A DNA stretch of 64,000 nucleotides, taken from the NCBI RefSeq assembly GCF_055900595.2, contig NZ_CM148325.1; one strand, 5' to 3'. A program made the translations under genes and the position numbers. Below the pieces are notes generated by a model, which was not told the origin of the DNA, ran no database searches, and was given only the letters and a program-made list of their open reading frames with translations. Position 1 is the stretch's first letter, and every line of letters starts with the position of its first letter. This document shows positions 4,001 through 63,792 of the stretch, piece by piece.

Positions 4001-4566
4001 GGATCACGGCTGTCCTCCAGGCACCTCTCAATGAAACGGGTGTTAGCCTGAATCAGCTTTCCGACCGCGATAAACAGGTGGAGATGGAGTTTTACCTGCC
4101 GATTAGTGAACCGCTCATCGCCAGCCAGCTTGATGCACTAATTCGCCAGTTTGATCCGCTATCCGCTGGCTGCCCGCCGCTGGAGTTCATGCAGGTACGC
4201 GGCATGTTAAAAGGCTTTATCGACCTGGTATTCCGCCACGAAGGGCGTTATTACCTGCTCGACTATAAATCCAACTGGCTGGGTGAAGACAGTTCGGCTT
4301 ATACCCAACAGGCTATGGCAGCGGCGATGCAGGCACACCGCTATGATCTGCAATATCAGCTTTATACCCTGGCGCTGCATCGTTATCTGCGCCATCGCAT
4401 TGCTGATTACGACTATGATCGTCACTTTGGCGGCGTTATCTATCTGTTCCTGCGTGGCGTTGATAAAGAACATCCGCAACAAGGGATTTACACAACCCGA
4501 CCCAACGCCGGGTTGATTGACCTGATGGATGAGATGTTTGCCGGTATGACCCTGGAGGAGGCGTAA
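1024..4566 (+). CDS. recB: RecBCD exonuclease V subunit beta (helicase/nuclease)
   Basis: Translation [30 protein letters not shown] with Walker A; about 1180 aa; ORF track start MKRM trimmed to the MSDV start. Confidence 0.95.
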
Positions 4567-6402: not shown

Positions 6403-6660
<258 letters not shown>

Positions 6661-8191
6661 TTACGCTGGTAGTTGTACAACTGCTTTTTGCTCTCGGGCA
6701 GTAAATCAATATCCACCGGGGTAAATCCACGTTCCTGGAACCAGTGAATACTGCGCGTGGTCAGTACAAACAATTTGCTTAATCCGCTTTGCTTCGCCTG
6801 AGCGGCAATGCGCTCCAGCAAAACCTCGCCCCTTGATGAGCTGCGGTAATCCGGGTGAACGGCCACACAGGCCATTTCCCCAATCTTCTCTTCCGGGAAC
6901 GGATAGAGTGCTGCGCAGGCAATAGTCGTGTTATCGCGCTGAATAATAGTGAATTTGTCGATTTCCATCTCCAGTTGCTCGCGAGAACGGCGTACCAGAA
7001 TACCTTGCTGCTCCAGTGGGCGAATCAACTCCAGAATGCCGCCAATATCGTTGATTGTTGCGCGACGAATTTGCTCGGCGCTTTCCATCACAATCTGCGT
7101 ACCGATACCGTCACGTGAGAACAACTCTTGCAACAGCGCGCCATCTTCCTGGTAACTAATTAAATGACAGCGACGTACGCCGCTGCGGCAGGCTTTCACC
7201 GCACCACGCAAAAAGCGCACCGTACCGGAGTTGTAATCGCCTTTCTCTTCCTGAGCTTCTACCCGCGCTTGTGCTTCGTTAGGGAAAAGCTCGGAGACAA
7301 TATCGCCGTCGTCATTAGTGACGCCCTGTGAAGAGCAAAAACCAATCATCTTTTCAGCTTTCAGTTTGATGGCCAGTTGAGTGGCGATCTCTTCCGAGGT
7401 CAGATTAAAGCTCTCGCCAGTGACTGAAACCGCGACCGGCCCCAGCAGCACTATCGCACCGCTGTCCAGTTGACGATGAATCGCATCTTCGTCAATCCGC
7501 CGGATACGCCCGCTATGGCAGTAATCCACACCGTCATCCACGCCCAGCGGCTGGGCAATAATAAAATTGCCACTGACGACGTTGATATGCGCGCCCTGCA
7601 GCGGCGTGTTATTGAGACTCATCGACAGGCGAGCAGTAATGTCCAGTTGCAATGTTCCCGCAGCCTGCTTCACCAGTTCTAGTGTTTTGGCGTCGGTCAC
7701 GCGTATATTTTTGTGATATAGCGGTTCGTGGTGATGCGCTGCCAGATTCGCATCGATCTGCGGGCGCGCTCCATAGACCACGACCAGACGGATGCCGAGG
7801 CTGTGCAGCAACCCGATATCATTAACGATACTGGAGAAATTCTCATGCTCAATGGCTTCACCGCCGAGCATGATGACAAACGTTTTTCCCCGGTGGGTAT
7901 TGATATAAGGAACCGAATGGCGGAATCCCTCGACCAACTCGGTTTTACGTTCCTTCACCACGGCACACCTCTTTGCATGATTATTCGTAATTATTGTATT
8001 TTTATTCTGTTTTTTCACTGGGTGCAAGTGCAAATTTTACGCATGAGCAACTTTTTTATCAGTAATGCCGTGAATATAAAAAGAATGTTTACCGTTTATT
8101 AGATGACAGATTATGCGTCTTTCGCTAAAGTTTCCGGTCAAATTAGTCGTTTATTTGTTACACAGCTTAGATTTTTTTGCTCGGGAGATGC

Positions 8192-9615: not shown

Positions 9616-9698
9616 CATCTTGTAACTGTTAAATCAGGCAAGGCAATGTTTGAAGTAATTATTACTTCTGACGTGCCTTGCCTTTTTTTTTGGAGCTA
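9616..9698 (+). promoter_or_regulatory. RAT-like antiterminator target overlapping a rho-independent terminator in the leader of the BglG-family gene
   Basis: ttgtaactgttaaatcaggcaaggca resembles RAT elements (bgl/sac type); stem ggcaaggca (9637-9645) pairs with tgccttgcc (9674-9682), followed by a T run of nine; inner palindrome gaagtaat/attacttc. Confidence 0.6.
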
Positions 9699-9702
9699 TG
9701 GA

Positions 9703-10527
9703 ATGATCATCGAAAAAGTCATGAACAATAATTGTGTACAGGCATCGATGAATGGACAGGAGGTTATCATTTCTGGGCCTGGCGTCGGTTACAACAAAAA
9801 ATATGGAATGTCGGTCCCTGAGCATCCGGCTAACCGGATTTTTTATGTCAGAAATGAACAAAAAAATAAACTCTACAAATTGATTGAACATGTGGATATT
9901 GAGTATGTTTTTGTTGCCGAAAAAATAGTGCAATATGCGGAGAACAATCTCGAAAAAAATCTCAATCCATCGCTACTATTGATTCTTGCTGATCATATTT
10001 CGAATGCAATATCCCGAGTCGCTTCAGGCATACAAATTAATAATGTTTTCCTTGATGAAATCAAAGCGTTGTACAAAGCAGAGTATGCGATAAGTCGCGA
10101 TGCATTAACTATCATTAATGAGCAATTCAGCGTTCAACTTCCTGATGATGAGATTGGTTTTATAGCATTGCATATTTTAAATAATTATGAAAATTCAGTT
10201 GATTATGAATCAGTACGGATTATTGAGTTGTCGCAAATAATCACGGGGCTTATTGAAGTTGTTTATAACAGAAAGGTGGACAGAAGTTCATTTAATTATT
10301 CCAGGTTCATGATACACCTTAAATATTTTTCAAGTCGCGTATTATGCAATGAAAAAATAAAACAGAAAGATATTGGTGATCTCTATGAACAGTTTCTTGA
10401 GAAAGACATTCTGTTACAGCGCGCAATTCATGAAATTGAAAGGTATTTGTACGCCACTTTTAAATATGAATTGATTTTGGAAGAAAAACTATATCTCTCT
10501 ATTCGCACCAAAGTATTAATGGACTGA
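9703..10527 (+). CDS. BglG/LicT-family transcriptional antiterminator (CAT RNA-binding domain plus two PRD domains)
   Basis: N-terminus MIIEKVMNNNCVQASMNGQEVIISGPGVGYNKKYG typical of the CAT domain; about 275 aa; start chosen downstream of the terminator, so ORF track start 9646 is rejected; AT-rich. Confidence 0.75.
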   Translation: MIIEKVMNNNCVQASMNGQEVIISGPGVGYNKKYGMSVPEHPANRIFYVRNEQKNKLYKLIEHVDIEYVFVAEKIVQYAENNLEKNLNPSLLLILADHISNAISRVASGIQINNVFLDEIKALYKAEYAISRDALTIINEQFSVQLPDDEIGFIALHILNNYENSVDYESVRIIELSQIITGLIEVVYNRKVDRSSFNYSRFMIHLKYFSSRVLCNEKIKQKDIGDLYEQFLEKDILLQRAIHEIERYLYATFKYELILEEKLYLSIRTKVLMD

Positions 10528-10558
10528 TTATATATAACATTTATATGAGATAACCCGC

Positions 10559-12139
10559 ATGAAACAAAAGAAAGCCTGGAGTTTTTTTCAGAGCCTGGGA
10601 AAGGCATTTATGTATCCCATCGCTCTGCTAAGTGTATGTGGCATGATGTTAGGGCTAGGAAGTGGTTTAGCCAGCGATGATATGGCAAAATTAATTCCAC
10701 TACTGGCTATTCCCGTAATTAAAACCATTCTTGATTTTATTGTTAGCCTTGGTTTGTTTGCCTTTGTCAATTTACCTGTATTGTTTGCGATAGCTATACC
10801 TCTGGGGTTATTAAAAGAGAAAGAGGATAAAGCCTATGGCGCTTTTTCTGGCTTAATTGGTTTCATGGCGATGCATCTGGGAACGAACTTTTATCTTAAA
10901 CAACATGACTTATTGGTCGCTGCTGATCAAATGTCGACACATGGGCAAACCATTATTCTGGGAATCCAGTCCTACAATACCAGTGTGTTGGGTGGGATTA
11001 TAGCAGGATTATTAGTCGCCAGTATGTATAAAAAGATCGTTAACTTACGTATTCCTGAATCATTAGGATTTTATAGTGGCCCACGCCTGGTGCCTATTAT
11101 TACACTGATTGTGATGAGCGGATTTGGTCTGATCATCCCTTTTATCTGGCCGCCATTTTTCAATCTTTTCATGCTCATTGGCCACTGGATTTCAACTTCC
11201 GGTCCTGTTGGCTATTTTTTCTATGCAGTCGCCGAACGCGTGACGATACCTTTTGGTTTAAATCACCTGGTGACGTCAGTTTTCCGCTTTACCCCCATCG
11301 GCGGATCGGCAGTGATCGGCGGAGAAGAGTATTATGGCACCCTGAACATGTTTATGGCGTACGTCAAAGAGAATGCGGTCATTCCGCTGGATTTGGCGGG
11401 GAAAATGGAACAGGGCAAACTGATGATTCAGTATGGTCTGGCTGGTGCCGCGCTGGCGATGTATCGCACTGCTCATGCTCAAAACAGAAAAGCTATCAAA
11501 GCATTGCTTATTTCCGGGGTGCTTACAGTCATTATTGGCGGCGTCAGCGAACCGATTGAGTTTCTGTTCTTATTTGTCAGTCCACTGCTATTTGTCTTCC
11601 ATGCTTTTATGAATGGATTCGCCAACATGGTCTTGCCATATATGGGCGTGAAGATGGGATTTACTGGCGATCTGATTCAATTTATTAGCTTTGGCGTATT
11701 GCGTGGCACAAGAACAGGTTGGCCAATAGCGGTGTGTGTCGAAGTGGCCTATTTCTTTATTTATTACTTTGTGTTCCGTTGGACTATTCTCAAATTTAAC
11801 CTGATGACGGTAGGCCGTGAAGAGTCCAGTCCTGTCACGCTGAACGCTCATGAGGATACGGCTATAGCGGATATCCCACCGCTTGATAAATCAGAGCTGC
11901 AAGCAGCGGAGCAGATGGTTAAGGCACTTGGTGGTAAAGAGAATATTAAATCCCTGGATAATTGCGTAACTCGTTTACGTTTAACAATCGCAGATATGGG
12001 ATTGATTGACGAGGCAGCAATAAAAAGAGCTGGCGGAATTGCGGTTGTTAAACTTGATCAAAATACCCTACAAGTCATTATCGGTACTAAAGTCATCGCC
12101 TTGCGTCGGGATATGGATAACTACATGGGGATATGCTGA
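10559..12139 (+). CDS. PTS glucose-family EIICB component (C-terminal EIIB with CxTRLR phosphocysteine motif)
   Basis: Polytopic membrane protein with GVSEPIEF motif and C-terminal NIKSLDNCVTRLRLT; 526 aa; no EIIA domain. Confidence 0.8.
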   Translation: MKQKKAWSFFQSLGKAFMYPIALLSVCGMMLGLGSGLASDDMAKLIPLLAIPVIKTILDFIVSLGLFAFVNLPVLFAIAIPLGLLKEKEDKAYGAFSGLIGFMAMHLGTNFYLKQHDLLVAADQMSTHGQTIILGIQSYNTSVLGGIIAGLLVASMYKKIVNLRIPESLGFYSGPRLVPIITLIVMSGFGLIIPFIWPPFFNLFMLIGHWISTSGPVGYFFYAVAERVTIPFGLNHLVTSVFRFTPIGGSAVIGGEEYYGTLNMFMAYVKENAVIPLDLAGKMEQGKLMIQYGLAGAALAMYRTAHAQNRKAIKALLISGVLTVIIGGVSEPIEFLFLFVSPLLFVFHAFMNGFANMVLPYMGVKMGFTGDLIQFISFGVLRGTRTGWPIAVCVEVAYFFIYYFVFRWTILKFNLMTVGREESSPVTLNAHEDTAIADIPPLDKSELQAAEQMVKALGGKENIKSLDNCVTRLRLTIADMGLIDEAAIKRAGGIAVVKLDQNTLQVIIGTKVIALRRDMDNYMGIC

Positions 12140-13314
12140 TGGATGTTTTTAATACTCCTATTTCCCGCAAAGGAACATATTGTACCCAATGGGACTTTTG
12201 CGAGGACAGATTTGGTGTAAAAGATGTATTACCATTCTCTATTTCAGATATGGATCTTCCGATACCGGAAGCTATCATCAGGGCATTAAAAAAACGTCTG
12301 GAACACCCGATTTTAGGGTACAGCCGTTGGCAGCATGATGACTATCTGAATGCGATAGTCAATTGGTATCATCAACAATATAAAACTGAAATCAAACCAG
12401 AATGGATCACCTATAGCCCAAGCGTGATGTACTCCATTGCTAAAGCAATAGAGTTATTGACATCGCATGGTGATAATATTCTCGTTTTTACACCTGTCTA
12501 TAATGCATTTTTTGATATAATTAAACATAGTGAGAGAAATATTCTGACAGCCTCTTTGATTATAAAAAATGAGGGGGGCTACGCTATCAATTGGCAAGAT
12601 TTTGATCTTAAGATTCAAAGCGCAAAGATGGTGTTATTATGTAATCCTCATAACCCGACAGGAACCGTCTGGTCGGAAGAAGATCTGCATAAAATCGCTG
12701 CAAGCTGTGCAAGACATAATGTCTGGTTATGTTCAGATGAAATTCACAGTGATTTTGTTTTTAATCGTAGCTTTACATCTGCGCTTAAAATAAAAAAAGA
12801 AAAAGTAGTGGTGTTTAATTCGATATCGAAGACATTTAATGTTCCCGCGCTAACAGGATCGTATATGATTTCAACTGACGATAATTTTAATCATAAGTTC
12901 AGAACGATATCAAGATATCGCGATTTTGTAAACTCCCCATCCGTACTGAATATAATTGCAACTATTATTGCCTATAACGAATGTGAGGGATGGTTAAAGT
13001 CATTAAAGGCACATATTGCCTCTAACATTCAATTCACCCAGCAGTATCTGAACGAAAATACTCCAGAATTGATCGTAAGGCCAGCTGATGGTTGCTATTT
13101 TTCGTGGATAGATTGCTCTGCTATTGGTTATCCATTTGATGAATTCTACAGTCGATTAATTCATGAAGGCAAAGTGGGCATTATGGCGGGGAATGTCTAT
13201 GGAACGGAGGGGGAGGGCTACCTTCGTCTGAACCTGGCCTGCGGTCGAGAAAAATTATATATGGGGCTTACGCGTCTTGCGAGTGTAATTAAAAATATTA
13301 ATCAAGGAAAATAA
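12133..13314 (+). CDS. PLP-dependent aminotransferase class I/II, MalY/PatB-like C-S lyase
   Basis: 393 aa; SISKTF lysine motif; length and organisation after a PTS EIICB resemble malX-malY; overlaps the PTS gene by 7 nt. Confidence 0.7.
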   Translation: MLMDVFNTPISRKGTYCTQWDFCEDRFGVKDVLPFSISDMDLPIPEAIIRALKKRLEHPILGYSRWQHDDYLNAIVNWYHQQYKTEIKPEWITYSPSVMYSIAKAIELLTSHGDNILVFTPVYNAFFDIIKHSERNILTASLIIKNEGGYAINWQDFDLKIQSAKMVLLCNPHNPTGTVWSEEDLHKIAASCARHNVWLCSDEIHSDFVFNRSFTSALKIKKEKVVVFNSISKTFNVPALTGSYMISTDDNFNHKFRTISRYRDFVNSPSVLNIIATIIAYNECEGWLKSLKAHIASNIQFTQQYLNENTPELIVRPADGCYFSWIDCSAIGYPFDEFYSRLIHEGKVGIMAGNVYGTEGEGYLRLNLACGREKLYMGLTRLASVIKNINQGK

Positions 13315-13316
13315 AA

Positions 13317-13913
13317 ATGAACAGCACGGATCTTATCCATCTCATTAAACATTTTATGCGTAACGAACATAAAGCAGTTGAAGAAGTTATTGATTCCCCC
13401 CTTTCGGAGGTTGCAAATTTAATTAAAGTATTACAGTCTTGTCAGGGGAAAGTTGTTTTTATTGGTGTCGGTAAGTCCGGTATTATTGCCCGAAAACTCG
13501 CCGCAACATTTGCCAGCACTGGAACTCCCTCGTTTTTTGTTCACGGTACTGAAGCCGTACACGGCGATCTTGGGATGGTGGCGAAAGATGATGTTGTTAT
13601 TCTTATTTCAAACAGTGGTGAGACGACAGAAATCCTGGCAACACTACCTAGTCTGAAAAAAATGGGTAATTATTTGATCTCCTTTACCCGCAGTCATCGC
13701 TCATCGCTTGCGATAAGTTGTGATTTATCCGTTGAAATTCCCGTAAAAAGTGAGGCGGATAATTTAGGTTTAGCGCCGTCATGCTCATCAACAGTCGTTC
13801 TGGTTGTTGGTGATGCGGTGGCGCTTGCGCTCTCCGAATTGAAAAAGTTTACTCGTGCTGATTTCGGCTTATATCATCCAGGAGGTGCGCTCGGTATTAA
13901 AGCAAACTCATAA
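13317..13913 (+). CDS. SIS-domain sugar-phosphate isomerase, KdsD/GutQ-like (arabinose-5-phosphate isomerase fold) lacking the CBS pair
   Basis: GVGKSGIIARKLAATFASTGTPSFFVHGTEAVHGDLGMV...ISNSGET...GLAPSCSSTVVLVVGDAVALAL closely parallels the KdsD SIS domain; only 198 aa. Confidence 0.7.
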   Translation: MNSTDLIHLIKHFMRNEHKAVEEVIDSPLSEVANLIKVLQSCQGKVVFIGVGKSGIIARKLAATFASTGTPSFFVHGTEAVHGDLGMVAKDDVVILISNSGETTEILATLPSLKKMGNYLISFTRSHRSSLAISCDLSVEIPVKSEADNLGLAPSCSSTVVLVVGDAVALALSELKKFTRADFGLYHPGGALGIKANS

Positions 13914-13974
13914 TTTTAGAATATAAAACAGTAACCGGTCACGCCATCTTTTGGGGTGGCGTTCATTGATGTGA

Positions 13975-14931
13975 GTGTCAGCTATGAAAAACGTTCTGGT
14001 CACCGTTCCCAGCTTTTCAGCGCGTTGTGTTTCTGCCAGCAAGCTGCTAAGAGAAAATCATTTTAACCTTATTATCAAGAATAATGTGGAGCATCTGGTT
14101 AAATCAGAATCCACAGTATTACGAGAATCTATTTGCGCAGTCATTGCCGGAAAAGATTGTTATCAAGCGGATACGTTATCGCGACTACCAGGAGTGAAAA
14201 TAATATCGAGATTCGGGACAGGGATTGATAATATTGATCTTCATACGGCTCGACAATCAGGTATTGTGGTCAATAATGCTGTTGGGATTAATTCAAATGC
14301 AGTCGCGGAATTTATCATTGGTCTTATTTTTGCGAGCATGAGAAATATCCCCGGTAGCTATCATGCGATGCAAAATGGTTATTGGGGCGAGTCGCATGGC
14401 TGCGAGTTACAAGGTAAACGTATTGGCCTGCTTGGCTACGGCAATATTGGCAAAACACTGGCGAAAAGGTTATCTGGTTTTGATGTTGAGCTTTTAGCTT
14501 TTGACAAACAACCCGATTTCCAGGCCGCAGGCAAAGATGGAGTTCAGTTCGTATCAATTGAAGATATCTTTATGCAGTCTCATGTCATCATCGTTCTTTT
14601 GCCATTTTCTCCTGAGCTGGAGAACTTCATTAGTCATAAATATTTGTCGATGATGCGCAATGGTGCTCTTATCATCAACGCCGCAAGGGGAAAGTTGCTG
14701 GATGAGGGGGCTTTACTTCAGGTAATTGAAGAACGAAATGTTTTTGCAGCACTGGATGTGTTTAGCTCTGAACCGCTAGCGCAATTTAGCCCATTGCTAC
14801 ATGCCAGGAATATCATTACAACGCCGCATATTGCGGCCGCCACCGTTGAGTCATACCAGCAAACCGGGATATACGTTGCCAGGTCGATAATAGATTTCTT
14901 TGCAGGAAGGGAGATAAAAAACGTGCTGTGA
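13975..14931 (+). CDS. D-isomer-specific 2-hydroxyacid dehydrogenase (NAD-binding)
   Basis: GLLGYGNIGKTLAKRL Rossmann motif; ...ITTPHIAAAT catalytic His region; 318 aa. Confidence 0.75.
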   Translation: MSAMKNVLVTVPSFSARCVSASKLLRENHFNLIIKNNVEHLVKSESTVLRESICAVIAGKDCYQADTLSRLPGVKIISRFGTGIDNIDLHTARQSGIVVNNAVGINSNAVAEFIIGLIFASMRNIPGSYHAMQNGYWGESHGCELQGKRIGLLGYGNIGKTLAKRLSGFDVELLAFDKQPDFQAAGKDGVQFVSIEDIFMQSHVIIVLLPFSPELENFISHKYLSMMRNGALIINAARGKLLDEGALLQVIEERNVFAALDVFSSEPLAQFSPLLHARNIITTPHIAAATVESYQQTGIYVARSIIDFFAGREIKNVL

Positions 14932-38006: not shown

Positions 38007-38370
38007 GTCGACAGGGAGTCAGACAACGAAGTGAACATCAGGATGATGACACTTCTGCAGGACACACCAGGAGGGTGTTTCAGGGAAAGGCTTCTGGATG
38101 AAGCGAAGAGGATGACGCAGGACGCGTTAAAGGACACCTCCAGGATGGAGAATGAGAACCGGTCAGGATGATTCGGTGGGTCAGGAAGGCCAGGGACACT
38201 TCAGGATGAAGTATCACATCGGGGTGGTGTGAGCAGGAAGCAATAGTTCAGGATGAACGATTGGCCGCAAGGCCAGAGGAAAAGTTGTCAAGGATGAGCA
38301 GGGAGCAACAAAAGTAGCTGGAATGCTGCGAAACGAACCGGGAGCACTGTGAATACAGTGCTCCCTTTTT
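38007..38370 (+). ncRNA. csrB: CsrB regulatory RNA (CsrA-sequestering)
   Basis: Begins gtcgacagggagtcagacaacgaag; more than 15 CAGGA(U/A)G-type GGA motifs; ends with hairpin ccgggagcactgtgaatacagtgctccc plus T run. Confidence 0.85.
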
Positions 38371-38379
38371 GTGCACAGA

Positions 38380-39090
38380 AAACCCCCAGCTAGGCTGGGG
38401 GTTCCGGAAAGCTTTCAGCTTTGAGCCAGTTATTAAAACCCCTTTTGATTTGTTAAAACACCTTGCGGTCTGGCAACTGCAAGTGTCAAACAAGAAATCA
38501 AAAGGGGGTCCCAATGGGGGACGAAAAGAGCTTAGCGCACACCCGCTGGAACTGTAAATATCACATAGTTTTTGCGCCGAAATACCGAAGACTGGCGTTT
38601 TACGGAGAGAAGCGTAGGGCGATAGGCAGTATTTTGAGAAAGCTGTGTGAGTGGAAAAGCGTACGGATTCTGGAAGCAGAGTGCTGCGCAGATCATATCC
38701 ATATGCTTGTGGAAATCCCACCCAAAATGAGCGTATCCGGCTTTATGGGATATCTGAAAGGGAAAAGCAGTCTGATGCTTTACGAGCAGTTTGGGGATTT
38801 GAAATTCAAATACAGAAACAGGGAGTTCTGGTGCCGAGGGTACTATGTCGATACGGTGGGTAAGAACACGGCGAAGATACAGGACTACATAAAGCACCAG
38901 CTTGAAGAGGATAAAATGGGGGAGCAGTTATCGATTCCATATCCGGGCAGCCCGTTTACGGGCCGTAAGTAACGAAGTTGAATGCAAATGTCAGATCGTA
39001 TGCGCCTGTTAGGGCGCGGCTGGTAACAGAGCCTTACAGGCGCATTTGAAAAACCTCCGGCTATGCCGGAGGATATTTATTTTTATTCCT
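38380..39090 (+). mobile_element. IS200-type insertion sequence (IS200/IS605 family), about 0.7 kb
   Basis: Left-end hairpin acccccagctaggctgggggtt, Y1 transposase gene, right-end hairpins (cctgtaaggctc..., cctccggctatgccggagg); boundaries approximate. Confidence 0.7.
38514..38972 (+). CDS. tnpA: IS200 transposase TnpA (HUH/Y1 family)
   Basis: MGDEKSLAHTRWNCKYHIVFAPKYRR...CCADHIHMLVEIPPK...RNREFWCRGYYVDTVG; 152 aa; start trimmed from ORF track (38463). Confidence 0.85.
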   Translation: MGDEKSLAHTRWNCKYHIVFAPKYRRLAFYGEKRRAIGSILRKLCEWKSVRILEAECCADHIHMLVEIPPKMSVSGFMGYLKGKSSLMLYEQFGDLKFKYRNREFWCRGYYVDTVGKNTAKIQDYIKHQLEEDKMGEQLSIPYPGSPFTGRK

Positions 39091-49402: not shown

Positions 49403-51637
49403 ATGGTTGCGGTAAGAAGTGCACATATCAATAAGGCTGGTGAATTTGATCCGGAAAAATGGATCGCAAGTCTGGGTATTACCAGCCAGAAGTCGTGTGA
49501 GTGCTTAGCCGAAACCTGGGCGTATTGTCTGCAACAGACGCAGGGGCATCCGGATGCCAGTCTGTTATTGTGGCGTGGTGTTGAGATGGTGGAGATCCTC
49601 TCGACATTAAGTATGGACATTGACACGCTGCGGGCGGCGCTGCTGTTCCCTCTGGCGGATGCCAACGTAGTTAGCGAAGATGTGCTGCGTGAGAGCGTCG
49701 GTAAGTCGGTCGTTAACCTTATTCACGGCGTGCGTGATATGGCGGCGATCCGCCAGCTGAAAGCGACGCATACCGATTCTGTTTCCTCCGAACAGGTCGA
49801 TAACGTTCGCCGGATGTTATTGGCGATGGTCGATGATTTCCGCTGCGTGGTCATCAAACTGGCAGAGCGTATTGCTCATCTGCGCGAAGTAAAAGACGCG
49901 CCGGAAGATGAACGCGTACTGGCGGCAAAAGAGTGCACCAATATCTACGCGCCGTTGGCGAACCGTCTTGGGATTGGACAACTGAAATGGGAGCTGGAAG
50001 ATTACTGCTTCCGTTATCTCCACCCGACCGAATACAAACGCATCGCAAAACTGCTGCATGAACGCCGTCTCGACCGCGAACACTATATCGAAGAGTTTGT
50101 CGGTCATCTGCGCGCTGAGATGAAAGCTGAAGGCGTTAAAGCTGAAGTGTATGGTCGTCCGAAACACATCTACAGTATCTGGCGCAAAATGCAGAAAAAG
50201 AACCTCGCCTTCGATGAGCTGTTTGATGTGCGTGCGGTACGTATTGTCGCCGAGCGTTTACAGGATTGTTATGCCGCACTGGGGATAGTGCACACTCACT
50301 ATCGCCACCTGCCGGATGAGTTTGATGATTACGTTGCTAACCCGAAACCAAACGGTTATCAGTCTATTCATACCGTGGTTCTGGGGCCGGGTGGCAAAAC
50401 CGTTGAGATCCAAATCCGCACCAAACAGATGCATGAAGATGCAGAGTTGGGTGTTGCTGCGCACTGGAAATATAAAGAGGGCGCGGCTGCTGGCGGCGCA
50501 CGTTCGGGACATGAAGACCGAATTGCCTGGCTGCGTAAACTGATTGCGTGGCAGGAAGAGATGGCTGATTCCGGCGAAATGCTCGACGAAGTACGCAGCC
50601 AGGTCTTTGACGACCGGGTGTATGTCTTTACGCCGAAAGGTGATGTCGTTGATTTGCCTGCGGGATCAACGCCGCTGGACTTCGCTTACCACATCCACAG
50701 TGATGTCGGACACCGCTGCATCGGGGCAAAAATAGGCGGGCGCATTGTGCCGTTCACCTACCAGTTGCAGATGGGCGACCAGATTGAAATTATCACCCAG
50801 AAACAGCCGAACCCCAGCCGTGACTGGTTAAACCCAAACCTCGGTTACGTCACAACCAGCCGTGGGCGTTCGAAAATTCACGCCTGGTTCCGTAAACAGG
50901 ACCGTGACAAAAACATTCTGGCAGGGCGGCAAATCCTTGACGACGAGCTGGAACATCTGGGGATCAGCCTGAAAGAAGCAGAAAAACATCTGCTGCCGCG
51001 TTACAACTTCAATGATGTCGACGAGTTGTTGGCAGCGATTGGTGGCGGGGATATCCGTCTCAATCAGATGGTGAACTTCCTGCAATCACAATTTAATAAA
51101 CCGAGTGCCGAAGAGCAGGATGCCGCCGCGCTGAAGCAACTTCAGCAAAAAAGCTATACGCCACAAAACCGCAGTAAAGATAACGGTCGGGTGGTGGTTG
51201 AAGGTGTCGGCAACCTGATGCACCACATCGCGCGCTGCTGCCAGCCGATTCCTGGAGATGAGATTGTCGGCTTCATTACCCAGGGGCGCGGTATTTCAGT
51301 ACACCGCGCCGATTGCGAACAACTGGCGGAACTGCGCTCCCATGCGCCAGAACGCATTGTTGACGCGGTATGGGGTGAGAGCTACTCCGCCGGATATTCG
51401 CTGGTGGTCCGCGTGGTGGCTAATGATCGTAGTGGGTTGTTACGTGATATCACGACCATTCTCGCCAACGAGAAAGTGAACGTGCTTGGCGTTGCCAGCC
51501 GTAGCGACACCAAACAGCAACTGGCAACCATCGACATGACTATTGAGATTTACAACCTGCAAGTGCTGGGCCGCGTGCTGGGTAAACTCAACCAGGTGCC
51601 GGATGTTATCGACGCGCGTCGGTTGCACGGGAGTTAG
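49403..51637 (+). CDS. relA: GTP pyrophosphokinase ((p)ppGpp synthetase I)
   Basis: 744 aa, MVAVRSAHINKAGEFDPEKWIASLGI. Confidence 0.95.
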   Translation: MVAVRSAHINKAGEFDPEKWIASLGITSQKSCECLAETWAYCLQQTQGHPDASLLLWRGVEMVEILSTLSMDIDTLRAALLFPLADANVVSEDVLRESVGKSVVNLIHGVRDMAAIRQLKATHTDSVSSEQVDNVRRMLLAMVDDFRCVVIKLAERIAHLREVKDAPEDERVLAAKECTNIYAPLANRLGIGQLKWELEDYCFRYLHPTEYKRIAKLLHERRLDREHYIEEFVGHLRAEMKAEGVKAEVYGRPKHIYSIWRKMQKKNLAFDELFDVRAVRIVAERLQDCYAALGIVHTHYRHLPDEFDDYVANPKPNGYQSIHTVVLGPGGKTVEIQIRTKQMHEDAELGVAAHWKYKEGAAAGGARSGHEDRIAWLRKLIAWQEEMADSGEMLDEVRSQVFDDRVYVFTPKGDVVDLPAGSTPLDFAYHIHSDVGHRCIGAKIGGRIVPFTYQLQMGDQIEIITQKQPNPSRDWLNPNLGYVTTSRGRSKIHAWFRKQDRDKNILAGRQILDDELEHLGISLKEAEKHLLPRYNFNDVDELLAAIGGGDIRLNQMVNFLQSQFNKPSAEEQDAAALKQLQQKSYTPQNRSKDNGRVVVEGVGNLMHHIARCCQPIPGDEIVGFITQGRGISVHRADCEQLAELRSHAPERIVDAVWGESYSAGYSLVVRVVANDRSGLLRDITTILANEKVNVLGVASRSDTKQQLATIDMTIEIYNLQVLGRVLGKLNQVPDVIDARRLHGS

Positions 51638-51651
51638 GCCGAAATTAGCTC

Positions 51652-51700
51652 GTATCTACAATGTAGATTGATATATACTGTATCTACATATGATAGCGGT
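51652..51700 (+). promoter_or_regulatory. mazEF promoter region with alternating palindrome (autoregulatory operator)
   Basis: tatctacaatgtagattgatatatactgtatctacatatgatagc immediately upstream of mazE. Confidence 0.5.
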
Positions 51701-51714
51701 TTGAGGAAAGGGTT

Positions 51715-51963
51715 ATGATCCACAGTAGCGTAAAGCGTTGGGGAAATTCACCGGCGGTGCGGATCCCGGCTACGTTAATGCAGGCGCTCAATCTGAATAT
51801 TGATGATGAAGTGAAGATTGACCTAGTGGATGGCAAATTAATTATTGAGCCAGTGCGTAAAGAGCCCGTATTTACGCTTGCTGAACTGGTCAACGACATC
51901 ACGCCGGAAAACCTCCACGAGAATATCGACTGGGGGGAGCCGAAAGATAAGGAAGTCTGGTAA
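51715..51963 (+). CDS. mazE: Antitoxin MazE
   Basis: [37 protein letters not shown]; 82 aa. Confidence 0.9.
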
Positions 51964-52298
51964 TGGTAAGCCGATACGTACCCGATACGGGCGATCTGAT
52001 TTGGGTTGATTTTGACCCGACAAAAGGTAGCGAGCAAGCCGGACATCGTCCGGCTGTTGTCCTGAGTCCGTTCATGTACAACAACAAAACAGGTATGTGT
52101 CTGTGTGTTCCTTGTACAACGCAATCAAAAGGATATCCGTTCGAAGTTGTTTTATCCGGTCAGGAACGTGATGGTGTAGCGTTAGCTGATCAGGTAAAAA
52201 GTATCGCCTGGCGGGCAAGAGGAGCAACGAAGAAAGGAACGGTTGCCCCAGAGGAATTACAACTCATTAAAGCCAAAATTAACGTACTGATTGGGTAG
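51963..52298 (+). CDS. mazF: Toxin MazF (ACA-specific mRNA interferase)
   Basis: [36 protein letters not shown]; 111 aa; start overlaps mazE stop. Confidence 0.9.
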   Translation: MVSRYVPDTGDLIWVDFDPTKGSEQAGHRPAVVLSPFMYNNKTGMCLCVPCTTQSKGYPFEVVLSGQERDGVALADQVKSIAWRARGATKKGTVAPEELQLIKAKINVLIG

Positions 52299-52368
52299 TG
52301 TTACTAACTCACTTCTATTCTGGTCACAGGTTTCCACCTGACAGACCCGCAATTTTCAGGACAATTCA

Positions 52369-53160
52369 ATGAATCAAATCGACCGTTTGCTCACTATTAT
52401 GCAGCGCCTGCGCGACCCGGAAAACGGCTGCCCGTGGGATAAAGAGCAGACATTTGCCACCATTGCACCTTACACCCTTGAAGAAACCTACGAAGTGCTG
52501 GACGCCATCGCCCGTGAAGATTTTGACGATCTGCGCGGTGAGCTCGGCGATCTATTGTTTCAGGTGGTGTTTTACGCGCAAATGGCTCAGGAAGAAGGGC
52601 GCTTTGATTTTAATGATATCTGCGCCGCGATTAGCGATAAGCTAGAACGTCGCCATCCACATGTTTTTGCAGGCAGTTCTGCCGAAAACAGTAATGAAGT
52701 GCTTGCCCGTTGGGAGCAAATCAAAACCGAAGAGCGCGCGCAGAAAGCGCAGCATTCGGCGCTAGACGATATTCCTCGTAGTTTACCGGCTTTAATGCGT
52801 GCGCAAAAAATCCAGAAACGTTGCGCCAACGTTGGCTTCGATTGGACGACGCTTGGTCCGGTAGTCGATAAAGTCTACGAAGAGATCGACGAGGTGATGT
52901 ACGAGGCGCGGCAGGCTGTTGTCGACCAGGCTAAACTGGAGGAGGAAATGGGTGACCTGCTGTTTGCCACGGTCAACATGGCCCGCCATTTAGGGACAAA
53001 AGCAGAGATTGCACTACAAAAAGCCAATGAAAAATTCGAGCGCCGTTTTCGCGAAGTGGAGCGTATTGTTGCCGCGCGTGGACTGGAAATGACAGGTGTT
53101 GACCTCGAAACAATGGAAGAAGTCTGGCAACAGGTAAAACGGCAGGAAATTGATCTCTAA
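52369..53160 (+). CDS. mazG: Nucleoside triphosphate pyrophosphohydrolase MazG
   Basis: 263 aa; tandem MazG domains. Confidence 0.9.
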   Translation: MNQIDRLLTIMQRLRDPENGCPWDKEQTFATIAPYTLEETYEVLDAIAREDFDDLRGELGDLLFQVVFYAQMAQEEGRFDFNDICAAISDKLERRHPHVFAGSSAENSNEVLARWEQIKTEERAQKAQHSALDDIPRSLPALMRAQKIQKRCANVGFDWTTLGPVVDKVYEEIDEVMYEARQAVVDQAKLEEEMGDLLFATVNMARHLGTKAEIALQKANEKFERRFREVERIVAARGLEMTGVDLETMEEVWQQVKRQEIDL

Positions 53161-53372: not shown

Positions 53373-55025
<1,653 letters not shown>

Positions 55026-56469: not shown

Positions 56470-57363
56470 TTACCAGCGGCCAGACGCGCCGCCACCGCCA
56501 GAAGAACCGCCACCTCCGCTAAATCCGCCGCCACTTGAGCCGCCACCGGAAGAGGATGAAGAAGAACCTTTTCTTGAAGCTCTTTCTTTACCGAGCGTCT
56601 TGTATTTGGCTCGTAGCTTTTTATTAACGATAAGCCAAAAGATAAGCAGCGCTACGATCGCAAAAGGCGTTAACATACCGCAGGCAACGATTAAATTCGT
56701 CCATGGTCCTGGCTCGGCAACATAGAGGAATACCATCCCGTAAATTGCGGCAGTGAGAGTTATCCAGGGTAGATTCGACGGATCGGTAAAAACAATAAAA
56801 TATGAAAGCACTGCCAGCAATATAAGTACAGCAAGCGAAAATGGGATAGGGGGATTGATACTGTAATAATTCCCCCTGCCTTCCGGTAATTCACCATTCA
56901 TCAGAAGTGCGCCGATATTTTCGCTTGCCAGTGTTACCCCCCCCATCAGGTCATCACTTTTGAAAGCAGGGATTAATATATCACGGATAATCTTTGCCGC
57001 TTGCAGGTCGGTAACCACCCCTTCCAGCCCATAGCCGACTTCTATACGAACAGCATGATCTTCCCAGGCAACCAGAAGTAAAATGCCATCGTTTCGCTGC
57101 TTATCTCCCAGTTTCCAGCTATCAAAAACGCGTGTTGCATATTGTTCAATGGTATCGTCTCCGGTGGATGGCACTATTAATACGGCAACCTGTGCCCGTG
57201 TTTTTTGTGTAATATCCTGCAGCTGTTGTGTCAGTGATTGTTGTTCAGACGTGCTTAAGGTACCAGTAATATCGGTCACATGTTGGCGCAGCTCCGGCAC
57301 AGCAATTTGCTGGGCAAGCACAGGAAGGCACCATAAAGTGAGTAGAAAAAGGATTATACGCAT
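56470..57363 (-). CDS. ygcG: TPM-domain membrane protein (YgcG-like) with Gly/Ser-rich C-terminal tail
   Basis: Signal peptide MRIILFLLTLWCLPVLA, TPM domain, two or more transmembrane segments, tail ...GGGGSSGGGGASGRW; ATG chosen at the fifth codon of the ORF track reading, since the track start codon is TTG. Confidence 0.8.
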   Translation of the reverse strand: MRIILFLLTLWCLPVLAQQIAVPELRQHVTDITGTLSTSEQQSLTQQLQDITQKTRAQVAVLIVPSTGDDTIEQYATRVFDSWKLGDKQRNDGILLLVAWEDHAVRIEVGYGLEGVVTDLQAAKIIRDILIPAFKSDDLMGGVTLASENIGALLMNGELPEGRGNYYSINPPIPFSLAVLILLAVLSYFIVFTDPSNLPWITLTAAIYGMVFLYVAEPGPWTNLIVACGMLTPFAIVALLIFWLIVNKKLRAKYKTLGKERASRKGSSSSSSGGGSSGGGFSGGGGSSGGGGASGRW

Positions 57364-57368
57364 AACGA

Positions 57369-58517
57369 TCACCAACGGCCGGATGAACCGCCACCGCCAG
57401 AAGAACCGCCGCCACCGCGGAAAGAGTTTTTCGACGAAGAGCGAGAATGAGCATTACGATTCCCCATTTTCCTGTTGATTTTATGTCCTGATCCCAGTTT
57501 AAGATTGCCAGTAAATTTGGCCACAATGATCAGCAGAACGATGCCAGCAATGGTTATTGGGCCGATAAAATGATCAATTAGCCCAATAATTGTTGAGATG
57601 AACGCAATATCTTTATTACTGGCAAATACCAGGCACCATCCCACAACAATTATCAGCAGCACGACAAACAATGAATTTCGTCCTGATTCACGAACCTGCG
57701 GAGCCTTCTTTTGTTTTTTCACTTTAGCGTTTTTATTTTGGGGGGCCAGCATCATAGGAAATGCGCGGCATATATTAAAAACTACCGCGAGACGCTGCCA
57801 GTAGATTGCTGCGAAAAATAAACTAAAACAAACGACCGATACCCGTCGAATGATGACATCGTTCTGAAAGCAGAAAAACCAGACCATAGGGGTAATCATC
57901 GATATCATCCATATGCCAGGCCCTGGATGGGTGGTAAATCGCCAGAGGACAACGATGGCAACGATCATCAGCAGTGTCCAGGCAAGACATGGCAGAGAGC
58001 GTTGCGGATTAGCAAACAGATGATTGGCTAAAGCATCCAAAGGGCTAAGATTCGCTTTTATATAGGTAAACTGTGCAATGCCTTCAATTCCCTGCGTTAA
58101 CCCGGAGAAGAGATTATTTTTTTTGAATTCCGGTTGCATATGGTAATGAACAATTTGCGCAGCTTGTTCCGGTGGCAGCATCTCTTCCAGTCCATGCCCA
58201 ATCTTCATTGACGCCAGCCCTTCCGGCCAAACGACGAGAATTAAGATACCTTCGCCGTACCGCTTCTCTCCAACAGGTTTCCAGTGATATAACCCGTAGC
58301 TTTGCGAGGCTGCAAGTTTAATGTCTTTACCCCCAGTGGTCGGCGTTACCAACACGGCAACCTGAAAGTGGTTTTGCTGCTCGAGAGTCTGTAATTGTTG
58401 AGTTAAAGCAGTTTGTTCTTCTGTCGTTAATGTCCCGGTTAAGTCAGTTACTGAAGGCAATTGTTCAGCGAATGCCTGGAAACCACATAGCATCAGAAGT
58501 AAGAGAAAAATACGCAT
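57369..58517 (-). CDS. TPM-domain membrane protein paralog (382 aa) with Lys-rich segment and Gly/Ser tail
   Basis: MRIFLLLLMLCGFQAFA signal peptide; divergent TPM domain; KNAKVKKQKK stretch; tail GGGGSSGGGGSSGRW; 5 bp from downstream ygcG start. Confidence 0.7.
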   Translation of the reverse strand: MRIFLLLLMLCGFQAFAEQLPSVTDLTGTLTTEEQTALTQQLQTLEQQNHFQVAVLVTPTTGGKDIKLAASQSYGLYHWKPVGEKRYGEGILILVVWPEGLASMKIGHGLEEMLPPEQAAQIVHYHMQPEFKKNNLFSGLTQGIEGIAQFTYIKANLSPLDALANHLFANPQRSLPCLAWTLLMIVAIVVLWRFTTHPGPGIWMISMITPMVWFFCFQNDVIIRRVSVVCFSLFFAAIYWQRLAVVFNICRAFPMMLAPQNKNAKVKKQKKAPQVRESGRNSLFVVLLIIVVGWCLVFASNKDIAFISTIIGLIDHFIGPITIAGIVLLIIVAKFTGNLKLGSGHKINRKMGNRNAHSRSSSKNSFRGGGGSSGGGGSSGRW

Positions 58518-58531
58518 TTCAATTCCTTTTG

Positions 58532-59464
58532 TTACCAGCGCCCGGAGGCGCCACCGCCGCCAGATGAACCGCCGCCGCCGCTGAAATTATCATTGTCAAA
58601 AGAGGATGAAGAGGAAGATGACGACGATGATGAAGAACGCCTGGAGGCCGAGTTACTTCTTTCGTAATGTGACGGTCGGTTGGCACTGCGCATCGAATCC
58701 CGAACCTTTTTGCCGAAGGGGGTAAAAGCGATGGCGACAGCCAGGAACGGTGTGGCGAAGCAGAGTAATGTTGCGAGTACTCCCCAGCTTCCGCTGAAAC
58801 CTGCTATAGGTAAAACAAAGGCCAGTACAATAGCTGTGAAGCAAATTAGTCCCAGCGTTTTGACATATCCTCTGGCGGAAATAAAGGTCAGTACTATTGC
58901 CCAGACTAACAAAGCCCACCAACCGTTAAAGGGCAAAGGGTGATCGGTCGGTGTTATCGTTGCTAAATTATTCCCCGTCAGACGATTATCAATATCGCTT
59001 ATTCCCTTTTGCAAGCCGCCAGCCAGGTCGCCATTTTTAAATGCCGGAATAATACTGTTGCGAATAATTTTCCCGGACTGCGCATCCGTAATAACGCCTT
59101 CCAGTCCGTAACCGACTTCAATACGCACGGTATGATCCTGCCAGGCGACTAACAGTAGAACGCCATCATCGCGGTCTTTATCACCCGGTTTCCAGCTATC
59201 GAATACCCGCGTAGCGTACTGCTCGATGGTTTCATCGCCCGTTGTTTCAACCACTAACACGACCAGTTGTGCGTGGCTTTTTTGCGTCAGCTCTTTAATC
59301 TGATTGGTCAACGTATTTACTTCATCGTTCGTCAATTTGCCGGTTAAGTCATTCACATACCTGGGTGATTCAGGTACTGGAATTTGTATGGCAAACACAG
59401 ATGAACAAAAGAAAGCCATAAGGAAGATAAAATTTCGCACAGGACTTCCTCGCTTAATGAGCAT
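58532..59464 (-). CDS. TPM-domain membrane protein paralog (310 aa) with poly-Ser and Gly/Ser tail
   Basis: TPM domain closely similar to the ygcG-like gene (…TIEQYATRVFDSWK…VRIEVGYGLEGV…); SSSSSSSSSSSS run; tail GGGGSSGGGGASGRW; overlaps lemA stop by 11 nt. Confidence 0.75.
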   Translation of the reverse strand: MLIKRGSPVRNFIFLMAFFCSSVFAIQIPVPESPRYVNDLTGKLTNDEVNTLTNQIKELTQKSHAQLVVLVVETTGDETIEQYATRVFDSWKPGDKDRDDGVLLLVAWQDHTVRIEVGYGLEGVITDAQSGKIIRNSIIPAFKNGDLAGGLQKGISDIDNRLTGNNLATITPTDHPLPFNGWWALLVWAIVLTFISARGYVKTLGLICFTAIVLAFVLPIAGFSGSWGVLATLLCFATPFLAVAIAFTPFGKKVRDSMRSANRPSHYERSNSASRRSSSSSSSSSSSSFDNDNFSGGGGSSGGGGASGRW

Positions 59465-60056
59465 TAGTATTCTGGCTAAAATCTATTGTCGGGGCTTTAC
59501 TCACAGCGGCGACATCATCCGGCAAATAATTTTTCTTTGGTGTGTAATCCATAACCTTTGCGGTTAACACTGCGGGGAATTTGCGGATAGTGACATTATA
59601 TTGTTCAATAGCTTTAATATATCTTCCTCGCGCAACGGCAATTCGATTTTCACTTCCTTCGAGCTGTACCATCAAATTTTGATAGAGTTCCTGGGCCTTT
59701 AGCTCAGGGTAACGTTCACTAATTATCGTTAACTGACCGAGAGTGCGAGACACCTGCGCCTGAGCTTGTTGCCAGGTTTGTAATTTTTGTTCATCTCCCG
59801 GAGTTTGCTGAAGAGCACTACTGGCGCGATTAGCCTGACTACGTGCCAATGTTACGGCTTCCAGTACCTCTTGTTCATGGCTGGAATAACCTTTAATACT
59901 GGCGACAAGATTAGGAATAAGATCGGCGCGACGTTGATATTGATTTAATACCTCAGACCAGGAAGCGTTAACCTGCTCATCATAGGTTTGAATATCGTTA
60001 TATCCACAGCCTGATAAATTGAAAATAAATATAATTACGATGAATGTTCTGAGCAT
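59454..60056 (-). CDS. lemA: LemA-family lipoprotein
   Basis: MLRTFIVIIFIFNLSGC lipobox; 200 aa; first gene of the lemA/TPM operon. Confidence 0.8.
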   Translation of the reverse strand: MLRTFIVIIFIFNLSGCGYNDIQTYDEQVNASWSEVLNQYQRRADLIPNLVASIKGYSSHEQEVLEAVTLARSQANRASSALQQTPGDEQKLQTWQQAQAQVSRTLGQLTIISERYPELKAQELYQNLMVQLEGSENRIAVARGRYIKAIEQYNVTIRKFPAVLTAKVMDYTPKKNYLPDDVAAVSKAPTIDFSQNTNAH

Positions 60057-60137
60057 GGTTAAATCCCTTTTAATTAATTCCTTAAAACATAATACGCCAC
60101 TTCATTTTATTCTTTATGATCTAATCCACTTTTTGCC

Positions 60138-61466
60138 CTGAGAGATCCCCTCATAATTTCCCCAAAACGTAACCATGTGTGAATAGATTTTGAGTAAGCA
60201 GGGTTGCAGCCACGAGTGAGTCTTCCCTTGTTATTGTGTAGCCAGAATGCCGCAAAACTTCCATGCCTAAGCGAACTGTTGAGAGTACGTTTCGATTTCT
60301 GACTGTGTTAGCCTGGAAGTGCTTGTCCCAACCTTGTTTCTGAGCATGAACGCCCGCAAGCCAACATGTTAGTTGAAGCATCAGGGCGATTAGCAGCATG
60401 ATATCAAAACGCTCTGAGCTGCTCGTTCGGCTATGGCGTAGGCCTAGTCCGTAGGCAGGACTTTTCAAGTCTCGGAAGGTTTCTTCAATCTGCATTCGCT
60501 TCGAATAGATATTAACAAGTTGTTTGGGTGTTCGAATTTCAACAGGTAAGTTAGTTGCTAGAATCCATGGCTCCTTTGCCGACGCTGAGTAGATTTTAGG
60601 TGACGGGTGGTGACAATGAGTCCGTGTCGAGCGCTGATTTTTTCGGCCTTTAGAGCGAGATTTATACAATAGAATTTGGCATGAGATTGGATTGCTTTTA
60701 GTCAGCCTCTTATAGCCTAAAGTCTTTGAGTGACTAGATGACATATCATGTAAGTTGCTGATAGGTTTCCAGTTTTCCGCTCCTAGGTCTGCATATTGTA
60801 CTTTTCCTCTTACTCGACTTAACCAGTACCAACCCAGCTTCTCAACGGATTTATACCATGGCACTTTAAAGCCAGCATCACTGACAATGAGCGGTGTGGT
60901 GTTACTCGGTAGAATGCTCGCAAGGTCGGCTAGAAATTGGTCATGAGCTTTCTTTGAACATTGCTCTGAAAGCGGGAACGCTTTCTCATAAAGAGTAACA
61001 GAACGACCGTGTAGTGCGACTGAAGCTCGCAATACCATAAGCCGTTTTTGCTCACGGATATCAGACCAGTCAACAAGTACAATGGGCATCGTATTGCCCG
61101 AACAGATAAAGCTAGCATGCCAACGGTATACAGCGAGTCGCTCTTTGTGGAGGTGACGATTACCTAACAATCGGTCGATTCGTTTGATGTTATGTTTTGT
61201 TCTCGCTTTGGTTGGCAGGTTACGGCCAAGTTCGGTAAGAGTGAGAGTTTTACAGTCAAGTAAGGCGTGGCAAGCCAACGTTAAGCTGTTGAGTCGTTTT
61301 AAGTGTAATTCGGGGCAGAATTGGTAAAGAGAGTCGTGTAAAATATCGAGTTCGCACATTTTGTTGTCTGATTATTGATTTTTGGCGAAACCATTTGATC
61401 ATATGACAAGATGTGTATCCACCTTAACTTAATGATTTTTACCAAAATCATTAGGGGATTCATCAG
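60138..61466 (-). mobile_element. IS10 (IS4 family), complete 1329 bp copy flanked by 9 bp target site duplication CTTTTTGCC
   Basis: Inside end ctgagagatcccctcataatttccccaaaacg at 60138; outside end (reverse complement ctgatgaatcccctaatgattttggtaaaaatcatt) at 61466; identical 9-mers at 60129-60137 and 61467-61475. Confidence 0.9.
60151..61359 (-). CDS. IS10 transposase
   Basis: 402 aa starting MCELDILHDSLYQFCPELHLKRLNSLTLACHALLDCKTLTLTELGRNLPTKARTKH, full length with no frameshift. Confidence 0.9.
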   Translation of the reverse strand: MCELDILHDSLYQFCPELHLKRLNSLTLACHALLDCKTLTLTELGRNLPTKARTKHNIKRIDRLLGNRHLHKERLAVYRWHASFICSGNTMPIVLVDWSDIREQKRLMVLRASVALHGRSVTLYEKAFPLSEQCSKKAHDQFLADLASILPSNTTPLIVSDAGFKVPWYKSVEKLGWYWLSRVRGKVQYADLGAENWKPISNLHDMSSSHSKTLGYKRLTKSNPISCQILLYKSRSKGRKNQRSTRTHCHHPSPKIYSASAKEPWILATNLPVEIRTPKQLVNIYSKRMQIEETFRDLKSPAYGLGLRHSRTSSSERFDIMLLIALMLQLTCWLAGVHAQKQGWDKHFQANTVRNRNVLSTVRLGMEVLRHSGYTITREDSLVAATLLTQNLFTHGYVLGKL

Positions 61467-61566
61467 CTTTTTGCCTTAAACCTGCCTGTAACAGAATGTT
61501 AATAAGACATGATTGTTGTGGCAGGATCTGCAATAATTAACAATTATCCACTTCACAGAGAATGCT

Positions 61567-62238: not shown

Positions 62239-62399
62239 TTAAACATTTATAAGCGTTATAAATGGGTGGAACCTGTAAAGACTTCCACTCATTTATATTC
62301 TTTGTCGCCTCTGAAAAAACTCCATTTTGCCCATCCTGGACTAATCATTATCATTCTCTACAAATTCTCTGGCGTTAATTTTTCGTTGGAGTGAAAATT

Positions 62400-62576: not shown

Positions 62577-63154
62577 GAGTTCCCCACGTCAGCGGGGATA
62601 AACCTTGCTCGATGCGGGCGTTAACTTTTTTATAGGCGAGTTCCCCGCGCCAGCGGGGATAAACCGCGTAATTTTGTACGCTCAACACGTAACTAAATGA
62701 GTTCCCCGCGCCAGCGGGGATAAACCGATCACCAGTGCGGATTGTTCAAATAGTGCCTGGAGTTCCCCGCGCCAGCGGGGATAAACCGAGAGCTATATCG
62801 CAGCGTTTAACTGGATGACAGAGTTCCCCGCGCCAGCGGGGATAAACCGGTGTTTTTTGCCATCTGAACTGTGGCACGCCGGAGTTCCCCGCGCCAGCGG
62901 GGATAAACCGTCTATAATGTCTCATCCGGGGTTAATTCAATCGAGTTCCCCGCGCCAGCGGGGATAAACCGATCAGCCCCACATCCGGTTTTGCCAGCAA
63001 CGTGAGTTCCCCGCGCCAGCGGGGATAAACCGTAAGATGATCTCACGGAATTGAACGAACTACGGAGTTCCCCGCGCTAGCGGGGATAAACCGGACACAG
63101 AGCGCCGCTATAGCGCCTATGCCAAGAGTTCCCCGCACCAGCGGGAATAAACCA
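62577..63154 (+). CRISPR. Type I-E CRISPR array, 10 repeats and 9 spacers of 32 nt (61 bp period)
   Basis: Repeat GAGTTCCCCGCGCCAGCGGGGATAAACCG at 62638, 62699, 62760, 62821, 62882, 62943, 63004; degenerate copies at 62577, 63065 and 63126. Confidence 0.9.
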
Positions 63155-63608
63155 CCATATAACCCGTTATCTCTTTCTCAAGTTTTTATATTAGCAGTAC
63201 TCGTATTAAGCAACATATCCACGTAACACCTCATGTTCAAAATAGCTCTCCATATATGAGAAGTTCACAATTATCGATACAAAAAATCAAATTTAATTAA
63301 AGTGTTAGTTGTATAATACTTAAATCATTAAGAAATTATCATATATTATTTTTTTAATATTGAATTGATGTTTGTTAATTTTTTCTTTAGGATAATAGTT
63401 TGTTTTTTAAGCTTATTATTCATTGATTAAGTAATAAATCTGGAAATTTGTCTTTGTTTTGAGGCTAATGAGTGATTTTACATAATCGCCTCTATAGGCT
63501 GTTGATGAATAGTTCTTATGAATAAAGATATCCAGTTCATACTTTAAGTGAAAATTGATAAAGTGCGATTCGTATTGTCTTTTATTCTAATGACATCGAG
63601 TGTAGTTA

Positions 63609-63746
63609 ATATTCCTTGTAAAAACAGGGATAAACCGAACTAGTTAAAGTTTTTATTATGTTCCCTGCATCAGCGGGGATAAACCGGACTTGTTATCATT
63701 TTTTAAGTTGTCGAACTTATGTTCCCCGCGCCAGCGGGGATAACCA
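63609..63746 (+). CRISPR. Second, degenerate mini-array (3 repeat-like units) preceded by its own AT-rich leader
   Basis: ...cagggataaaccg / atgttccctgcatcagcggggataaaccg / 32 nt spacer / atgttccccgcgccagcggggataacc; AT-rich 63160-63600 upstream. Confidence 0.6.
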
Positions 63747-63792
63747 TTCAGGTATGTTCAGGCCGGGCAGTTTCCCGCCCGGCCTTCCTCAC

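Follow-up and report, generated by a model that had tools for sequence, protein, structure and literature searches.

The two open reading frames at positions 51652-52298 of the window (the whole 64,000-nucleotide stretch of DNA analysed here, which is E. coli chromosome from recB to queE) are identified, with a probability that we put at about 95%, as mazEF (chpA), a type II toxin-antitoxin operon of the E. coli chromosome, here intact and orthologous to that of K-12. What identifies it is the match in sequence, the unbroken frames, the operator, the conserved gene order and the assignment to the MazE and MazF families, while the activity of MazEF, its regulation and its antisense RNA in the source strain are expected by analogy with the work on K-12. 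The span opens at base 1 of a direct repeat, GTATCTACA, and closes at the final base of the mazF stop codon; the features that it holds, and those around it, are listed in Table 1. The locus belongs to the most studied toxin-antitoxin modules and is an ordinary, already known feature; this copy adds no new biology and matters little, serving here as an annotation anchor that places the window on the E. coli chromosome. It bears on two questions: what chromosomal mazEF does for the cell, which is disputed, and whether its alleles may differ in their effects.

Table 1 Features of the mazEF locus and of its neighbourhood. Positions are those of the window.
Feature	Position	Strand	Remarks
relA	49403-51637	+	5' of mazE
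relA-mazE spacer			77 bp
mazEF cassette	51638-52334	+	697 bp, from the relA stop codon to the last 34 bp before mazG
mazEF operator/promoter region	51649-51698		the 50-bp 'cab' DNA without mismatch; encloses the palindrome at 51653-51689
Operator site c	51652-51670		from the oligonucleotide of PMC4333400
Operator site a	51668-51681		TTGATATATACTGT, ATATAT core; from PMC4333400
Operator site b	remainder of 51649-51698		
Shine-Dalgarno-like GAGGA	51703-51707	+	7 nt 5' of the mazE ATG; read from sequence, putative function
mazE	51715-51963	+	82 aa, antitoxin and DNA-binding autorepressor; 2 ACA sites
Shine-Dalgarno-like AAGGAAG	51949-51955	+	within the 3' end of mazE, 7 nt 5' of the mazF ATG
mazF	51963-52298	+	111 aa, ACA-specific endoribonuclease toxin; 8 ACA sites
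aMEF (ameF, b4844) antisense RNA	52003-51604	-	position transferred from the K-12 RefSeq annotation
aMEF promoter region	52004-52078	-	75 bp 5' of the aMEF start, inside mazF
mazF-mazG spacer			70 bp
mazG	52369-53160	+	NTP pyrophosphohydrolase; downstream gene in the relA-mazEFG arrangement
pyrG	53388-55025		3' of mazG

An earlier note, written from the letters of this DNA, had taken the pair for a known system with both reading frames intact, and the analysis agrees on the two points. Translation gave a MazE of 82 aa and a MazF of 111 aa without frameshift or premature stop. In the alignment with K-12, MazE was identical at 82 of 82 residues (it is also 100% identical to PDB 1mvf_D) and MazF at 110 of 111 (99%), the sole difference being M9T (codon ACG at 51987-51989). 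Solved E. coli structures of MazE, MazF and their complex (1ub4, 1mvf, 3nfc, 5ck9, 5ckd and others) were matched with E-values of 1e-52 to 1e-72. The families recovered were: for MazE, the Pfam family MazE_antitoxin (PF04014, 3.5e-14, residues 6-51) and the NCBIfam equivalog NF007312 (196.2 bits for a cut-off of 113, full length, residues 1-82); for MazF, the Pfam family PemK_toxin (PF02452, 5e-24, 85 bits for a cut-off of 23.1) and the NCBIfam equivalog NF007386 (226.4 bits for a cut-off of 120, full length, residues 1-111). The E. coli paralogue ChpS-ChpB (ChpBI-ChpBK), which shares both folds and likewise has the antitoxin gene in front, was matched weakly: the scores (34.6 bits with the ChpS model, cut-off 101; 55.4 bits with the ChpB model, cut-off 129) are far under the equivalog cut-offs, so the locus in the window is not chpB. 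The latter sits elsewhere on the E. coli chromosome. MazF retains E24, R29 and T52, all three invariant in the K-12 alignment; R29 and T52 we take to have roles in RNA cleavage, following the structural literature on MazF. The E24A form of MazF is enzymatically inactive (PMC5888573). Given the 99-100% identity to the characterised proteins, ACA-specific cleavage by MazF and its neutralisation by a protease-labile MazE would be expected from this pair.

The gene order relA-mazE-mazF-mazG-pyrG is that of K-12 (b2784-b2780). The prediction of terminator-like sites came out empty for the + strand from relA through mazEF to mazG, as would fit the relA-mazEFG arrangement in the literature. The antitoxin gene comes first and the toxin gene follows on the same strand, tightly coupled to it. 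The overlap between them had been described as one codon long and has to be corrected to one nucleotide (TAATG), the genes being in different frames: the mazE stop codon TAA occupies 51961-51963 and the mazF start codon ATG 51963-51965, with base 51963 shared. K-12 MazE-MazF (ChpAI-ChpAK, b2783-b2782) has the same TAATG junction at the same locus, in addition to the synteny and the operator. The AAGGAAG motif in the 3' end of mazE, combined with the TAATG overlap, suggests that translation of mazF may be coupled to that of mazE.

The alternating palindrome announced upstream of mazE is present, the string quoted for it, tatctacaatgtagattgatatatactgtatctacat, lying at 51653-51689. Its arms are: ATCTACA (51654-51660); (A)TGTAGAT (51661-51668), which is complementary to both of the others; and ATCTACAT (51682-51689). 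A perfect palindrome, ATATAT (51671-51676), sits between the middle and the downstream arms, and the two copies of the direct repeat mentioned above (51652-51660 and 51680-51688) are 28 bp apart. Promoters P2 and P3 were reportedly mapped by Marianovsky et al. in 2001 (JBC), who are also said to have named the alternating palindrome. The 50-bp 'cab' operator aligned to the window with 0 mismatches, where no match is expected by chance, and the same 50 bp are found in K-12; the nearest difference (A at 51647, T in K-12) is two bases upstream. The 'cab' DNA, studied by calorimetry (ITC) and NMR, binds three MazE dimers (Zorzini et al. 2015, PMC4333400), and by this sequence match a three-site MazE operator (c, a, b) is predicted 5' of mazE. 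Within site a, TATACT (51674-51679) resembles a -10 hexamer. A simple sigma-70 consensus scan of 51300-52500 flagged no promoter within the operator; the single match close by, ATGATA-18-TATGAT (51690-51719), was discarded as not credible, given its overlap with the mazE start codon.

These data also bear on the trivial explanation that the reading frames and the palindrome arose by chance, or are what is left of a decayed pseudogene pair, with no real module behind them. The K-12 identity, the operator match and the equivalog scores refute it and leave it a vanishingly small probability: the protein matches are full length and of equivalog level, the operator is identical, and the locus is conserved in more than 4400 genomes. 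The arrangement of the palindrome is rare in resampled sequence as well, which argues against chance: the 64-kb window has 5 cases of a 7-mer that recurs as a perfect inverted copy, no more than 30 nt away, in either direction, compared with 0.4 ± 0.7 in 40 first-order Markov resamples of the window. The four further places with such two-sided inverted copies of a 7-mer are at 5716, 62046 and 62257-62258.

Since the characterised protein pair is identical to the pair described here bar one residue, the mechanism can be drawn from published work. MazF would form stable dimers with endoribonuclease activity on single-stranded RNA at ACA. MazE would be dimeric as well, and labile, and would wrap and block MazF with its disordered C-terminal tail, giving a MazF2-MazE2-MazF2 complex. 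The N-terminal AbrB-type domain of MazE would bind the adjacent sites c, a and b in an operator that overlaps the promoter; this binding, modulated by MazF, would lead to autorepression of the operon. A stop in MazE synthesis, or a faster degradation of MazE by Lon/ClpAP, would liberate MazF, and free MazF would cleave its own transcript as well as other mRNAs and rRNA precursors, so that translation would drop. A weak antisense RNA, aMEF, starting inside mazF, would tune the ratio between the mazE and mazEF transcripts, as it does in K-12.

The role of mazEF is disputed in the literature, the proposals being programmed death, reversible stasis or a stress brake, P1 exclusion, and a selfish cassette without host function. 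The last of these proposals is a rival concerning the role and not the molecular mechanism: mazEF would be a selfish, horizontally inserted cassette that does nothing for its host and persists via addiction, or via anti-addiction against plasmid PemK/Kid-type systems. The population sample consisted of 5426 complete E. coli genomes, with the flanks of the locus matched in 5425. The module, annotated as mazE/mazF, is present in 4415-4418 of the 5426, and the cassette is missing from approximately 1010 (19%), in which no mazEF remnant is left and the relA-mazG gap measures 95 bp, 61 bp of them unrelated to the window. The limits of the 697-bp cassette in Table 1 were set by the comparison with this empty site. 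Such a clean presence/absence pattern speaks for a selfish cassette, as does the GC content (46.2% in the cassette, below the 53.5% of relA and the 51-53.5% of the neighbours). The selfish nature of the module has also been argued in a review, which reports that a deletion of five toxin-antitoxin systems, mazEF included, caused no fitness defect under various stresses (PMC7167474). On the other side, the module is kept at an identity of at least 95% in about 81% of the complete genomes, always as a single copy, always chromosomal and at one site, with no plasmid-borne copy among the E. coli records of the 5426-genome collection; and mazEF has been implicated, in published work, in excluding phage P1 and in stress phenotypes (PMC7167474). 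Weighing both sides, we regard a selfish cassette without host function as a serious candidate, at somewhat worse than even odds.

The presence/absence polymorphism of mazEF between relA and mazG is already published, and the window offers a clean example of it: Fraikin et al. 2020 (PMC7167474) described relA-mazG as an undisturbed operon in UTI89-type strains and mazEF as an intercistronic insertion. A diverged mazEF in the approximately 1010 partially matching genomes was considered and rejected, since the one genome that was aligned has a true empty site with the unrelated 61 bp. In the empty site of NZ_LR882990.1 (positions 639-699 of the extracted locus L004), the 61 bp after the relA stop codon hold an inverted repeat, GCTGGATA...TATCCAGC, which may form a hairpin after relA. 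Among the genomes with the module, eight match the window at 100% over 801 bp. NZ_CP098223.1 ranks first among them and is 99.97-99.98% identical to window positions 1-60137.

The comparison with K-12 MG1655 over 1001 aligned bases (window 51455-52455) revealed 14 substitutions: four silent ones in relA; one intergenic (51647); two silent ones in mazE; six in mazF, five of them silent; and one silent in mazG. One of the silent substitutions in mazF, ACA to ACG at 52241 (codon 93), leaves eight ACA sites in this gene versus nine in K-12 (nine are also stated in PMC5888573); mazE has two ACA sites here and two in K-12. At residue 9, where K-12 MazF has methionine, the T9-type 57-mer around the codon is found identical in 490 of the 4418 genomes that hold the mazE-mazF junction and with one mismatch in 3928; MazF T9 is a minority but common allele.

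The antisense RNA aMEF had escaped the earlier note and is annotated in the K-12 RefSeq record; with the K-12 annotation transferred, it lies opposite the relA stop codon, the operator, mazE over its full length, and mazF at its 5' end. Van Gundy et al. 2022 (PMC8749433) found in K-12 that weak, non-canonical promoter activity resides in the 75 bp 5' of its start. Silent mutations in this promoter cut the amounts of MazE and MazF protein about two-fold and moved the transcript balance away from the monocistronic mazE form and towards the dicistronic one (PMC8749433). Three silent substitutions relative to K-12 fall in the corresponding region of the window, at 52040 (-37), 52052 (-49) and 52070 (-67).

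It could be argued from these differences that the locus is a functionally attenuated variant, in which M9T, the lost ACA site and the silent changes of the aMEF promoter would shift toxin activity or autoregulation. The differences do exist, and the T9-type 57-mer belongs to a minority of the genomes; however, residue 9 is not among the reported catalytic residues and E24, R29 and T52 are kept, the T9 allele occurs in hundreds of genomes, both frames are intact and NCBI names the product endoribonuclease MazF. Moreover, the aMEF promoter is active, according to PMC8749433, despite its non-canonical form and poor conservation, and positions -37, -49 and -67 fall outside a standard -35 or -10 hexamer. 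An attenuated variant is thus quite improbable, and it is just as doubtful that the allele (T9, one ACA site fewer, the aMEF-promoter changes and A at 51647) might have a set-point of toxin activity or autoregulation different from that of K-12. If it did, natural mazEF alleles would differ functionally among E. coli lineages, a point of modest interest. An intact mazEF operon orthologous to that of K-12 is the reading that we prefer.

Outside the chromosomal pairs of E. coli, the closest parallels are drawn with the plasmid systems PemI-PemK and Kis-Kid (parD of R100/R1), whose toxins belong to the same family as MazF (PF02452). In these systems, operator binding is piloted by the antitoxin and tuned by the toxin:antitoxin ratio, as in MazEF. 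The module of the window differs in its place, a constant chromosomal site with relA on one side and mazG on the other. Structures of other bacterial MazEF systems (PDB 7d28/7d2n, 7dhp, 7bye) contain homologous MazF endoribonucleases and antitoxins of the AbrB/MazE/SpoVT type; they are distant, with scores of 91-98 bits versus approximately 240 bits for E. coli MazF. Differing cleavage motifs among MazF homologues are reported in PMC10893535.

The module had further been presented as the only toxin-antitoxin or defence-like one in the window besides CRISPR, and this was borne out as far as PGAP, Rfam and PADLOC reach. The PGAP annotation of NZ_CP098223.1 (99.97% identical over window positions 1-60137) includes no other toxin-antitoxin or defence gene, and the Rfam scan of the window found no type I antitoxin RNA, its matches being CsrB, GcvB, STnc490, RNA-OUT and three tRNAs. 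Searched against PADLOC-DB v2, MazE, MazF and MazG matched no family at E ≤ 0.001, nor did the LemA/TPM genes, and the accessory genes downstream of eno were without match; the published P1 exclusion data (PMC7167474) are the one ground for calling mazEF defence-like. The CRISPR array (62577-63155) has 10 repeats of the E. coli type I-E kind with a 61-bp period, and two degenerate repeats lie about 530 bp beyond it (63658-63748). No cas genes are found within the window, where the array is an orphan, and the CRISPR region aligns patchily with the closest genome (83-95% identity).

Several side features of the window deserve mention. A complete IS10 (60138-61466, 1329 bp), inserted between the LemA-family gene and queE, carries a 402-aa transposase ORF (60151-61359, - strand) and the RNA-OUT match of Rfam (61352-61421, + strand), and is flanked by a 9-bp target duplication, CTTTTTGCC (60129-60137 and 61467-61475); the insertion is probably recent, since NZ_CP098223.1, 99.97% identical apart from this, lacks it. 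The region 56470-60056 (- strand), between eno and queE, holds the LemA-family gene and, after it, three paralogues with a TPM domain and a Gly/Ser-rich tail each; the TPM reading frame at 58532-59464 is open (310 aa), whereas in NZ_CP098223.1 one of the three genes is annotated as a pseudogene lacking its C-terminus. Between amiC and three tRNA-Met genes there is an accessory sugar-utilisation cluster (9646-14931), presumably absent from K-12 at the same site, with genes for a PRD-domain regulator, a PTS EIIC component, a MalY/PatB-family protein, a KpsF/GutQ-family isomerase and a phosphoglycerate dehydrogenase. An IS200/IS605 tnpA gene (approximately 38514-38972, + strand) is located directly 3' of csrB (38016-38375), with the Rfam STnc490 match (38381-38504) directly upstream of it. 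Finally, the recD-argA intergenic region contains a 55-nt direct repeat (6453-6507 and 6608-6662), whose copies are 89% identical and 155 bp apart.
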